Source of the DNA: Octopus vulgaris
Lineage: Eukaryota
Direction of reading: 5' to 3'
DNA: 64,000 nucleotides
Assembly: GCA_951406725.2 (NCBI GenBank)
Contig: OX597814.1
Span: 166,966,001-167,030,000 of the forward strand
Within the stretch, counting starts at the first letter, position 1; each line of letters begins with the position of its first letter. The translations under genes were made by a program, and so were the position numbers. Positions 2,754-29,644 of the stretch are shown piece after piece. The notes below the pieces were generated by a model. The model did not search any database. It was not told the DNA's origin and was given only the letters and a program-made list of their open reading frames with translations.

Positions 2754-3741
2754 CTGTGTTGAGTCAAAAGTTTTGCAATATTTTGAAAACTTATTTGCGT
2801 TATTCAAGTTACAACAAAAGCAACTTAGCATTCAATGGGAAAAAATTTATATTATTTGCTCTCAACCGAAGCAAGGCTCTATAACCTCACTACCTCCACC
2901 TGGTCCAAAAAAAAAGTTGGAGGGGGTCTCTAATAAACCAAGCTTTCAGTCCAAAAAACTCTGAAGCCACCAATCTGCCAGTATTTTGATTCCATACTGA
3001 TACCAGTTCTTGTTTTTCGGGGTGAAAAACTTCTTCATTAAAGCTCCGACCTCTTCTTCGTTGCGTCGCGACCGTAGGCAGTGTCATGGATCGGAACAAG
3101 TAATAATCTGAGGGAGCTATGTCTGGGCTACATGTTGGGTGTGGCATCAGTTCGATTCCCGCAAGTTCCTGAAGTTTATTCCGGGTAGCAGTGTGAGGTC
3201 TTGCACCGTCTTGCTGCAGAATAGCTCGCTCTCTTTTAACCAATGCCGGATATATTAGCTGCACAATAACATACATCCACTTCAGCTTTTCGTAGTACAG
3301 GCTGGCATTGACGGTTCGACCGTCCAGAACGAACTTGTAATGAATTATCCCCCCTTAATTCAACCAGACGCAGAACATCACTGTGTTCAAAATGCTCATA
3401 TTAGGCGACGGGTTCCAGAAGCTGGCCCTTGCTTATGCATGCTAGGATTGCGGGAAGAATCTCAGAATTATTGCTTGTCAGCGATCTATGGTTTACTTCC
3501 TGCGCTCGCGACGATTCATCAACCAAAAGGTGGTGGAAATTCGAAGGTGGAAGCCTCGAAGGACAAGCAAGAACTGATATCAGCATGGGATCAAAGAACT
3601 GGTAGAAAAGTGGCTTCACGTTGTGCAACACGACAGCTCCTACTTTGAATGCTAGGCTTCTTCTTTTCTTTTTTTTTAATGCTTTTAACGATTAAAACTA
3701 GTAAGTTACCAAAATATTGCAAAACGTTTGACTCAACACGA
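2754..3741. mobile_element. Rearranged mariner remnant with two transposase 3' ends
   Basis: Inverted termini GTGTTGAGTCAAAAGTTTTGCAATATTTTG (2756-2785; 3710-3739 with 1 mismatch) flanked by TA; minus-strand QQDGARPH...SPDIAPSDYYLFRSM; plus-strand C-terminal HGIKELVEKWLHVVQHDSSYFEC*. Confidence 0.8.
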
Positions 3742-24713: not shown

Positions 24714-25318
24714 TTGTAAACCTACGATTAAGGATGTTCTGGCCTTGACTATCCTTTCGTTTTGTAAGCCGATGACTACATTTTCACGAAGATAGTGCGT
24801 AATCTGAGGGAATTTGGCTGTTATTTCTACTGAGTCGGGAGACCGAATAAATGTCTCCTTGCCGGATCACGTTTTCAACAACTAAATTGTTTCTGAGCGA
24901 ACAAAGTGGAGGAGAGCTCTACCTCGTTTGCTGGAAATAGTAATCAAATTCTCTCAAATCATGCATTAGCGACTTGAATAAAGACTACATAGATCGATAC
25001 AGTCCTACAAACTTCAAAAATAATGGACGGAACGCCCCTGATATTAGGTCTGCTCAATCAGGACTGAGAAATATGAGCTATTAAAGTAGCAAACCTCTGT
25101 GCTGTCGTTAGAACTGCTAAAAATAGTAAGTAAAGCACCCTCAAATCACAGACTGCAATCATAAGATGCCAATAACTTGGTTCTGAATTAAAGGGATGAG
25201 ATGGCCACAGTGGTATCTCTTTTGATTATATTTAATTTAAAGACTCAATATTCCAAAGAATTTGTCATATCTATCGTCGGTTTTTAAAAAAATGTTTTAA
25301 GGTATATGTATGTGTGTG

Positions 25319-25643
<325 letters not shown>

Positions 25644-25645
<2 letters not shown>

Positions 25646-28600
25646 TTCACTGCGCCGCTATTCACTGCGCCAGAGACTCTGCACAAATAGTGACTGCATC
25701 TTCACGCATCTACCCGGCACTAGACGCACTACTGGCCAAGGCCAAAGCACGCATCCCACAATAACATCAACACCACCAAATAGTAAATCGAAATTCAAAA
25801 CACACACAACTCGGAGTCCCAAAATCTGCCGGTATTCCCAACGTGAGAGAACATGTCTACTGAGTGACTGTCCCTTCACTCATCTTCCAGGGACCCGACG
25901 CACAAACAGAAACGGGGCCTCAAGCCAACACACAAACCTGAATAACAATAAAAATAGAAACACACCATGCTGCAGTAATGCTGGTCCAGTCTTTTCAGGA
26001 AGACACAAAAACAACAACAACAAAAGTGGAAACTACAACCCTATCCAACAGTGCAACCACACCTCCAGCCAAAAACTGCTCCCTAAGCAGGAAAATTCTT
26101 TTTTTAGCCATGTTGAACATGGCAAAAGAGATACACAAAAACATTCTAGCCATCACTCAACACCATCCTATGCTATTACCCCAGTGCACCAATTCCCCAC
26201 ATTGCTGCCACTAACACACACAAAAAATCCAAGCCCCCTGCAACAGTCAAAACCAGCCACTACACTAACCTCCACATTCCTACTCAATGCACAAGGTGTC
26301 AGCCCTTCCATCAATGCACAAAAATGGAAGGTCCAATTCATTGAAGACTGGGTTGGTAACCATTCACACCACATCCCTTTCTTCATTCTCACTGAGACCC
26401 ACCTTGACAACTCCCACTTGGAAGCCGAAGTGAGAGTGAAGAATTTCACAACCATCCGCGCGGATCGTATCGGCAGGAGGAAGGGTGGAACTGCCATTTT
26501 CCTGCATGATTCATTTACGGCAGATGGAAATAGTATATTCTCCAACGGCTACTGTGAATCAGTCACCGTGCACAACAAAGCCAATGATCTGACAGTAATT
26601 GGACTCTATAGGCCGCCCCAAACACCCATACTGTGCTTTAAAGAATGCCTCAACAGCATTAAGTGCTTTATTCAACAGTGCCATTCTAGCAACATACTCA
26701 TGATGGGAGACTTCAATCTACCCTGTGTTGACTGGACTACAAACTGTTTGAAACCAAGCACTCCCGCCTCAACCGCTGACAAAGAAGCAGCAGAGTCACT
26801 TTTCGACTTTACGAATGAGTTTTTCTTGTCCCAACTTGTCCTTGCACCAACAAGACATCAGAACATTTTGGACCTAGTGTTTAGTAACCACACTAACACT
26901 ATACATAACGTTACAGTGGAAAAAACCCTTCTTTCAGACCATGACATGGTTCTCTGTAACATGAAATTCCACCAGCCGAAAGCTAATCCTAGTGACCTTC
27001 CTCCAGCCCACCCATTTGACAACATGGATCTCCATAAAGCCAACTGGGATGCAATCAGGAACGAGCTATCAAATGTTAACTGGTCCTTTACACATACACA
27101 CATCTCCACCAACCATAAAACATCTTGGCAGATCTTTGTAGACACCGTCACAGACATATGTGCAAAACACTCCCCACCAAGACCTGTGAACAAAAAGTGC
27201 AGAATCCCCCAAAACAGAAAAACCATTATCAGAAAAATAAAAAGAACAAACAAAAAAATTAACAAACTAAAGTACTGCCAACAGCAACACACACATTCGA
27301 CGGCTATCGCACTGCTTGAATCCAAAAAATATAACCTCCAACATTGCATGAAGTCCCTCATCAATAACCAAAGATCAGCTGAGGAGAAGTGGGCCATTGA
27401 AAAAATCAAACTCAACCCCAAAGTGTTCTTTTCATTTGCGAGGAAACGCAGGGTCACTGTCTCCACTGTAGGCCCTCTAATTGACGAAACTGGCACTCTC
27501 CAAGATAATGCCAAATCCATGGCCGAGATACTGCAGAAACAATACTGCTCTGTTTTCAGCAATCCTGATATGGCCGATCTGGGCTGTATCAGTGATGTCA
27601 ACCCCCAACACACTATATCGGACATAACGTTTAGTGCCCCTGATGTCTTAGCGGCGATAAACGAAATAAAACACAATTCAGCAGTAGGCCCCGATAGGTT
27701 CCCTGCTTGTGTCCTGAAGGTGTGTCGACACCAACTTGCATCTCCCCTTGCTAATCTGTGGAGAAACTCACTGGATGCTGGCTATATTCCAAAAAACCTT
27801 CTGTCCCAGTCTGTTGTCCCAGTTTTCAAAAAGGGAAACAAGTCCCTTGCAGTGAATTACCGTCCGATCTCACTCACCTCTCATATCATCAAGGTATTTG
27901 AGAGGGTGGTGAGATCTCAAATAACCCAATTTCTGGAAAGCAACAGACGGCTGATCTCCAACCAACATGGGTTCCGTAATGGAAGGGACTGCCTAACGCA
28001 GCTCCTGCATCACTTTGAGGACATTTTGAGAGCTTTGGGAGAGGGCTCCAACACCGATGTCATCTACCTTGATTTCAGTAAGGCCTTCGACAGGGTCGAT
28101 CACAAGATCCTATTGAAAAAACTATCCAACATTGGTGTCTCTGGAAAGTTACTGAAATGGATTAAGTGTTTCCTGACAGACAGATCTCAACATGTTGTAG
28201 TTGAAGGGGTAAAATCAAGCCCAGCCAAAGTCAGTAGTGGCGTTCCGCAAGGCACTGTGCTGGGCCCACTTCTTTTCATCATTTACATTAATGACATTAA
28301 TGACATCATCAAGCACAGCAACATAAAAATCTTTGCAGATGACTCCAAGCTACAGAAGGTCATAAATGAGGCGAGTGACCGGACATGCCTTCAGTCAGAT
28401 CTACTGGCTGTTATCCAATGGGCAGAAAAAAACAATATGCTGCTGAACGAGGATAAATTTGAGCTAATCCACTTTGGAAAAGAGGATGCCCTGAAACTCC
28501 CATACTCCCTTCCTTCAGGTGAAACTCTCACGGCGTCCAACAACATCAGAGACTTGGGAGTAATTGTGGACAACAACGTAAGCTGGGCCACTCATATAAA

Positions 28601-29219
28601 CACCAAAGTTGACATGGCCCGCAGAATGTGTTCCTGGATTCTCAGAACTTTCCAGTCGAGAGATATCCACACCATTATCCTTCTCTTCTCCACTTTTGCC
28701 CGACCCCACCTTGAATACTGTTGTCCACTGTGGTCTCCCCACACAATACAAGGTATCATAAAAGTCGAAGCACCTCAAAGGGCAATCACAAAAAAGATAG
28801 ATGGCATGACAGGCCTCGACTATTGGGGTCGACTAGAAAAGCTAAAACTCTATTCTCTCCAACGTCGTCGTGAGCGCTACATCATCTGCATGATGTGGAA
28901 AATATTCCATCAGCATTGCCCAAATGATGTTGGCATCACCTTTAAGGTACATCCAAGGCTTGGGCCCCGTGCCATCCGCCCAAAACAAAAATCGCACTCT
29001 CATCTCATAACAACAATACGGCACAATTATTTCACCTCAATTGGCCCCGCTCTCTTTAACATTACACCAAAACACATTAAAACAGAAACTGACCCTATAG
29101 GGTTCAAGAAGTCTTTGGACAGATTCCTTCAAGAAATCCCGGATAAACCCCCTACACCCGGATATGTCTCTGTAAACAATAACTCTCTACTTGAGTGGGC
29201 CATAGTGCCCAAATTCTGA
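25644..29219 (+). CDS. LINE ORF1 C-terminal part (tandem CCCH fingers) in frame with endonuclease/reverse transcriptase; no genuine start codon in this copy
   Basis: [20 protein letters not shown]; LNAQG, LTETHL, MGDFN, SDHD (APE); [36 protein letters not shown] (RT). Confidence 0.9.
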
Positions 29220-29309
29220 CTTGAAAGACTTCACCAGGTGGTGCTATTAAGTTAGACATGGCCTGGGCCAATAATGGCCGAAACCTATCAAAGTATCAAA
29301 GTATCAAAG
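25644..29309 (+). mobile_element. Young 5'-truncated CR1/L2-group LINE
   Basis: Uninterrupted frame with CCCH fingers, APE endonuclease and RT; short 3' UTR with GGCCA-ATAA-TGGCC hairpin (29266-29279) and (TATCAAAG)3 tail (29286-29309). Confidence 0.95.
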
Positions 29310-29644
29310 TATATATATATACATATATATATATACATATATATATATACATATATATATATACATATATATATATACATATATGCATGTATTTGTATGC
29401 GTATATGTATGTAAATATATTTATTTATTTATTTATTTATTTATATACATATATACAGAAAATTTTTTTAAAAGGCGAAAACATGTCCATAATGGTCATG
29501 CATAGTTATAAAGAGGGAAAATCAAGATATTATACTTTATAGACGAATATTGTTGGGTTTTTTGTTTCTGCTGCATATTTATTTCCAATTAACTTTTTCA
29601 TGCTTCCTCTAATTAAGAATATTGGTATAATTAAGAATATTTTG

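Follow-up and report, generated by a model that had tools for sequence, protein, structure and literature searches.

A conserved slippery heptamer as a candidate −1 frameshift site between ORF1 and ORF2 in a deep clade of LINEs

The LINE copy in the window and its ORF1/ORF2 junction

The window, a 64,000-nt stretch of Octopus vulgaris DNA, carries a 5′-truncated copy of a young, two-ORF, APE-type LINE (25644–29312, + strand, as are all features of the element given below). We refer to this LINE as family A; its full length is ∼4.65 kb. The insertion site is a (TA)n microsatellite, and a short duplication is found at the 5′ junction. Compared with a full-length copy, the window copy shows 99.75% identity over the part that extends from 445 nt before the T-run described below to the tail. 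What remains of ORF1 upstream of the T-run (25657–26098) encodes a remnant of a first CCCH finger, a second CCCH finger (from ∼25824) and an Asn/Thr-rich linker; the start codon and the Myb/SANT-like N-terminus are missing. The ORF2 frame (26100–29219, 1039 codons) encodes a ∼60-codon low-complexity linker, an AP endonuclease (motif I, FLLNAQG, at 26277) and a reverse transcriptase (RT), with Pfam matches to PF14529, PF03372 and PF00078. Neither an RNase H nor a C-terminal zinc knuckle gave a Pfam match in ORF2 at E up to 1; their absence from ORF2 is a trait of the CR1/L2 lineage. The element ends in a 3′ UTR and a (AAGTATCA)n tail (29220–29312). AP endonuclease followed by RT in ORF2, 5′ truncations and a repeat tail identify it as an APE-type two-ORF LINE. 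Elsewhere in the window, six open frames of 150–220 codons at 3354, 5208, 14814, 20630 (−), 46604 (+) and 58583 (−) look by eye like pieces of mariner/Tc1 transposases and an RTE-type endonuclease piece.

The two ORFs meet at a slip site (26099–26106) that reads U_UUU_UUA, with six Ts, in the family and has seven Ts in the window copy (26099–26105, then A at 26106). The seventh T places ORF1 and ORF2 in one frame. The resulting long frame (25236–29219) contains no Met codon from the 5′ junction (∼25644) to the first Met of ORF2 at 26700, inside the endonuclease, as the earlier note had described. In six-T copies, the ORF2 (−1) frame is bounded upstream by a TAA (26084–26086) that lies four codons 5′ of the slip site. 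The C-terminal 35 codons of ORF1 (26107–26214; stop at 26212–26214) are amphipathic, end in ...CCH* and are out of frame in the seven-T window copy, where they form the end of a separate frame (25942–26214) terminating in CCH*. This frame had been read as a natural ORF1 C-terminus, and in six-T copies it is indeed the amphipathic tail of ORF1. A CTG in the ORF2 frame (26205–26207), 7 nt 5′ of the ORF1 stop, is a candidate reinitiation codon; family B, introduced in the next section, has an ATG at the equivalent place. Another potential ORF2 start, an ATG at ∼25978, was rejected because it lies in the third frame.

Six Ts are the commonest state of the run. We counted exact patterns of five, six or seven Ts with identical flanks in the whole 2.8 Gb genome. 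Of the 315 copies found, 209 have six Ts, 100 have five and 6 have seven, so that U_UUU_UUA stands in ORF1 phase in 209/315 family A copies. The earlier note had proposed six Ts as the family form and had named a majority of seven-T copies as the outcome that would count against it; the counts favour its proposal, but they also contain five-T copies, a third of the total, that it did not foresee. Contigs from 8/8 public sequencing runs likewise read six Ts, though such contigs drop minority variants and may hide rarer lengths; a 30-base tag from one of them has a single match, in a decayed, truncated copy (L115). In a DNA search whose ranking is biased to near-identity with the seven-T query, 28 six-T and 2 seven-T copies were seen among the 30 loci taken from the best 40 of 538 candidates scored. 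Family A copies are up to 99.9% identical and many have intact frames. One copy (L051, G000:C14:30376000-30382500) falls in long patches of its ORF2 to much more divergent sequence and may be either a chimera of A and B or a mosaic produced by assembly.

A seven-T source lineage was rejected, as no variant is private to all six seven-T copies; two of the six are rich in further indels. In the window copy, a dead and 5′-truncated insertion, the seventh T is an indel of this single copy, for which mutation and error are alike possible. It had been suggested to hard-wire an ORF1–ORF2 fusion. The frames are joined, but since this copy is 5′-truncated and lacks the ORF1 start, its fused frame cannot be made from a start of its own.

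The usual layout was read from 20 copies, each in a 10-kb stretch; 19 of them are six-T and one is seven-T. A typical six-T ORF1 starts at an AUG 1115 nt 5′ of the first T, stops 112 nt 3′ of it and encodes ∼410 aa: a Myb/SANT-like N-terminus (PF13837, E 2.4e-5, below the curated cut-off), Gln-rich stretches, two CCCH fingers (weak Pfam matches) and the amphipathic tail. ORF2 is in the −1 frame and opens 12 nt (four codons) before the T-run in 19/19 six-T copies. Its first Met is codon 204, beyond endonuclease motif I, in 18/19. An in-frame ATG just upstream of the endonuclease, the other outcome named in advance as adverse to a frameshift, is absent from all 19 six-T copies read.

The heptamer across the reverse transcriptase clade

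Three more families in the same genome reach the junction: B, whose ORF2 is 79% identical to that of A; C, with 37% identity to A; and D, with 56% identity to C. The matches to a protein query in this genome are apparently family B copies, and a metagenome scan yielded 80 LINE loci. In a quick RT tree of 117 rows, built without bootstrap, families A–D, nine metagenome loci and 20 database proteins fall into one clade (SH-aLRT 100), a grouping defined within this tree. The database proteins (n = 35) come without DNA context and served only for alignments and the tree. Five of the clade's nine metagenome loci reach the junction (L116, L117, L118, L119 and L121) and four do not. Most of the nine members that reach the junction share 32–47% ORF2 identity.

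A slippery heptamer is present at the homologous spot in 9/9 clade members with a readable junction. Seven (A, B, L116, L117, L118, L119 and L121) carry U_UUU_UUA. Family C carries U_UUU_UUG, whose G at the seventh position is outside the eukaryotic consensus, and family D carries A_AAU_UUU, encoding NFV in place of SFL. The strict X_XXY_YYZ consensus therefore holds in 8/9 members, with C (Z = G) as the exception. Downstream of the heptamer, the −1 frame is stop-free over overlaps of 97–403 nt; upstream, it is closed by a stop 1–8 codons 5′ of the heptamer in 8/9 members and 21 codons 5′ in family D. Conservation of heptamer and overlap in related families, which had been put forward as a check, thus extends to all nine readable members.

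The conservation of the heptamer exceeds what the encoded protein needs, as judged by codon resampling, saturation tests and the heptamer swap in family D. Distant members have nearly saturated silent sites (fraction with the same codon 0.30–0.47, against 0.34–0.38 expected), and only two other in-phase U6 runs occur in ∼7,400 ORF2 codons. Given the ORF1 amino acids, the codon choice at the heptamer has P = 0.011–0.115 per element, with a product of 10^−12.4 over eight elements and about 10^−9 without A, the discovery case, and B, its close relative. For a fixed ORF1 protein, a −1 frame without stops has a joint P of 10^−8.2 (493 codons, eight elements, D left out); all of these products assume independence and are overstated by the shared ancestry of the elements. 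Openness of the overlap does not reach significance in family A taken by itself (P = 0.36). Taken together, these comparisons indicate that the slip site is real, family-wide and kept across a deep LINE clade.

AUG codons show no such conservation. An AUG before endonuclease motif I is absent in 6/9 clade members and present in 3/9; in C and L119 it lies between the slip site and motif I. Within 30 nt of the ORF1 stop and before motif I, one member (B) has an AUG, five have only near-cognate codons and three (L116, L118 and L119) have none of the start-like codons tested. Five members (C, D, L117, L119 and L121) place the ORF1 stop inside motif I, at exactly the same position, 2 nt before the motif I Asn codon.

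ORF1 is of the Myb/SANT-like plus CCCH type in families A and C (and, by eye, D), while L116 encodes PHD fingers plus CCCH (L050:3731-4957, L089:520-1458, L315 and L116:3-2750). A term search of the part of a survey covered here (PMC4120745) did not find the Myb/SANT-like plus CCCH combination among the published CR1/L2-lineage ORF1 types. An ATGGCC motif in the 3′ UTR (window 29253–29280) is kept in B, C, D and L117, though their ORF2s are ∼40% identical; it is possibly a recognition element. Families A–D mostly sit in (TA)n microsatellites, often with several families adjoining (window 25260–25660 and 29313–29380; most loci L001–L318), which suggests a target preference.

Long ORF2s with upstream sequence are available for 36 of the 80 metagenome loci. 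A −1 arrangement with >150 open codons upstream occurs in 20/36, from which L145 and L181 were dropped as broken ORF2 pieces. Among the 18 retained, three of them from the clade of families A–D, codon resampling predicts 5.4 with a strict in-phase heptamer in the overlap, and the observed number is 15 (P = 2e-9, with rows that are not independent). ORF1/ORF2 overlaps are seen, for example, in L122, L124–L127, L129, L135, L138, L139, L141, L146 and L167. In seven of the 36 loci, ORF1 and ORF2 share one frame with a single stop (L140, L144, L152 and L153; also L133, L155 and L193); the stop is UGA-C in four of the seven, and UGA followed by C is a readthrough-like context. A +1 arrangement is found in four of the 36, and five have no clear arrangement.

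RNA structure and loss of Ts at the slip site

A hairpin surrounds the slip site in family A. The GCCATGT-TGA-ACATGGC stem at 26107–26123, which the earlier note had pointed out directly behind the T7A run at 26099–26106, is in the sequence, is stronger than chance would give and is longer than described. In an extended form (26097–26131), the U-run itself pairs with AAAAGAG (−15 kcal/mol, z −3.6; 0/200 shuffles as good). A similar hairpin is predicted in B and C, where the U-run is likewise folded with AAAAGA and, in C, in a different codon phase; it is not found in the five metagenome relatives. The stem begins 0 nt after the heptamer, where a ribosome on the site would melt it, and is thus an unlikely stimulator, in agreement with the reservation about its missing spacer voiced at the outset. 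The U-run hairpin of A, B and C may instead attenuate the shift or have another role.

Published work supports a 7–8 nt spacer between heptamer and stimulator and reports that a bare heptamer shifts at ∼0.1% (PMC3561942, in the part covered). At normal spacing, a strong classical stem-loop is found only in L118 (∼7 nt downstream). Family A has a weak, interrupted alternative stem (26112–26161) that would form once the first hairpin is melted and is a candidate weak stimulator (−10.3 kcal/mol, z −3.4); it is not conserved in B (−3.5 kcal/mol, z −0.1). The remaining six elements have nothing significant at normal stimulator spacing, in a test confined to stem-loops. Across the clade elements folded, no conserved 3′ stimulator at 7–8 nt was found, and predicted pairing between the 3′ tail and the sequence after the slip site beats the control windows in 0/6 elements (fraction of 80 controls as good, 0.075–0.875).

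Single-T loss in family A is a site-specific hotspot. Five-T copies account for 100/315 (32%) of family A, 5/97 of the five- or six-T copies in B and 3/20 readable copies in C. Other 6–7-base runs change length in at most 10/78 copies, and mostly in 0–3, in a sample of 79 family A copies (40 of the 100 five-T copies and 39 six-T copies). A five-T subfamily was rejected: a diagnostic variant is absent, and five-T and six-T copies are mixed over a poorly resolved tree. Some five-T copies are identical to six-T copies over 3 kb, and together with the missing diagnostic variant this means that T loss recurs. Two variants are skewed to five-T and seven-T copies, in small counts (5/37 vs 2/48).

Copies that have lost a T make up a larger share of families A and C, whose hairpins are strong (−16 and −17 kcal/mol), than of B, which has a weaker one (−10 kcal/mol). 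This trend fits slippage of the RT at insertion and fits a hairpin sequencing artefact equally. We regard it as quite possible, in a tentative proposal held jointly with further claims, that the family A hairpin around the slip site makes the element's own RT lose one T in a third of new copies. In five-T copies, ORF1 would end at UUU_UAG with ORF2 then in +1, and this UUU_UAG is a possible +1 shifty stop into ORF2.

Routes to ORF2 and comparison with known systems

A programmed −1 frameshift at U_UUU_UUA that yields an ORF1–ORF2 fusion is the best reading of these sequences, and we consider it probable. Most ribosomes would terminate at the ORF1 stop, and their product would be a Myb/SANT-like, CCCH-finger protein with an amphipathic C-terminal helix. 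A minority would slip back one base at the heptamer and make an ORF1–ORF2 fusion, in which the helix is exchanged for the linker, endonuclease and RT, much as Gag relates to Gag-Pol. The stimulus may lie in the intrinsic slipperiness of U6A, perhaps aided by lineage-specific 3′ structure, rather than in the zero-spacer hairpin.

Termination followed by reinitiation, as in SART1 and L1, would restart translation at a nearby AUG or near-cognate codon and release a free ORF2 protein, leaving the heptamer as a relic or a second route. For two-ORF LINEs this is the mechanism that has been tested (PMC2881922, in the part covered), and the ATG of B and the CTG of A, both 7 nt 5′ of the ORF1 stop, would suit it, as would a start-like codon within 30 nt in 6/9 members. 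Yet reinitiation does not predict a −1 frame that is open for 97–403 nt and begins at the heptamer, nor does it sit well with start codons that are not conserved and have no tested counterpart near the stop in L116, L118 and L119, or with an ORF1 stop within motif I in 5/9. The missing conserved start codon is itself compatible with reinitiation, because that of L1 is described as AUG-independent. On balance we consider reinitiation unlikely.

Two further explanations dispense with a ribosomal shift, and both appear less likely still. RNA polymerase could add a U at the T-run, so that seven-U mRNAs are read as a fusion. The instability of the run among copies (five Ts in 100/315 and seven in 6/315, against a maximum of 10/78 in other runs) is what such slippage might leave behind, but under cis preference seven-U RNAs should be copied, yet seven-T copies make up 2%. 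Moreover, family D has no U6 run and still has an XXXYYYZ heptamer, and six Ts are a short run for polymerase slippage, which leaves this explanation very improbable. Slightly less probable again is that there is no recoding signal at all and that the T-run arises incidentally from a conserved Phe-Leu opening the ORF1 C-terminal helix. The x-F-L followed by an amphipathic stretch is in fact kept in 8/9 ORF1 tails. However, the codon choice required has a per-element P of 0.011–0.115 at near-saturated silent sites, D changed its amino acids and kept a heptamer, and six AUG-less ORF2s would be left without a start.

How LINE ORF2 is translated is an old open question, with tested answers only for L1 and SART1 in the parts of the reviews covered. 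If the frameshift is real, these LINEs make an ORF1–ORF2 fusion rather than a free enzyme, and consensus models with an AUG-less ORF2 are to be read as frameshifted, not broken. A seven-letter site kept over a deep animal LINE clade permits a precise reporter test, and family A, young and with many intact frames, is suited to a retrotransposition assay.

Recoding in non-LTR elements has been raised before. The part of PMC5009743 covered here names only HeT-A, TART and L1. A search for the term ‘frameshift’ found it absent from PMC4120745, PMC13343379, PMC10294476 and PMC9115989, and a slippery site in CR1-group LINEs did not appear in the titles and abstract openings searched, a coverage outside which lie most subscription journals and Repbase Reports. 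As far as the parts of the sources covered here go, recoding is proposed for Drosophila HeT-A, where the shift is within gag and there is no RT (PMC5009743), and is suggested for Paramecium LINEs, as a predicted +1 shift or readthrough (PMC5405496). The LINEs of the CR1/L2 lineage (Jockey superfamily; ORF1 types I–V) resemble those described here in their two ORFs, APE and RT, and short tandem-repeat tail (PMC4120745, in part); the ORF1 PHD fingers of L116 are a further point of likeness.

A precedent among non-LTR elements is given by Dictyostelium TRE5-A and TRE3-A, APE-type elements whose ORF2 is stated to need a −1 frameshift (PMC5911963, in the part covered). The earlier remark that frameshifting is less well known for LINEs than for LTR elements must be read with this statement in mind. 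The TRE elements belong to another lineage and host, carry an ORF2 zinc finger and target tRNA genes (PMC5911963). Their description, in the part covered, gives no slippery site or assay, whereas the clade examined here keeps its heptamer. SART1 and L1, in which ORF2 is translated by coupled reinitiation (PMC2881922 and PMC5009743, both in part), share with the present elements a bicistronic LINE mRNA and a low ORF2 output dependent on ORF1 translation. In SART1 and L1, however, a stop-start junction or short spacer yields a free ORF2 protein, whereas here the frames overlap and most members have no AUG.

The junction also resembles that of HIV-1 gag-pol. The heptamer and its phase are the same (PMC3561942 and PMC5009743, both in part), and in both systems a nucleic-acid-binding ORF overlaps an enzyme ORF, and a slip would replace the C-terminus of the first protein. 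Unlike HIV-1, the LINE is a non-LTR element without a conserved stem-loop 8 nt downstream and without a protease to process the fusion, and the heptamer of families A, B and C is part of a hairpin. The LINE junction, with its inferred shift, probably works like that of retroviral gag and pol.
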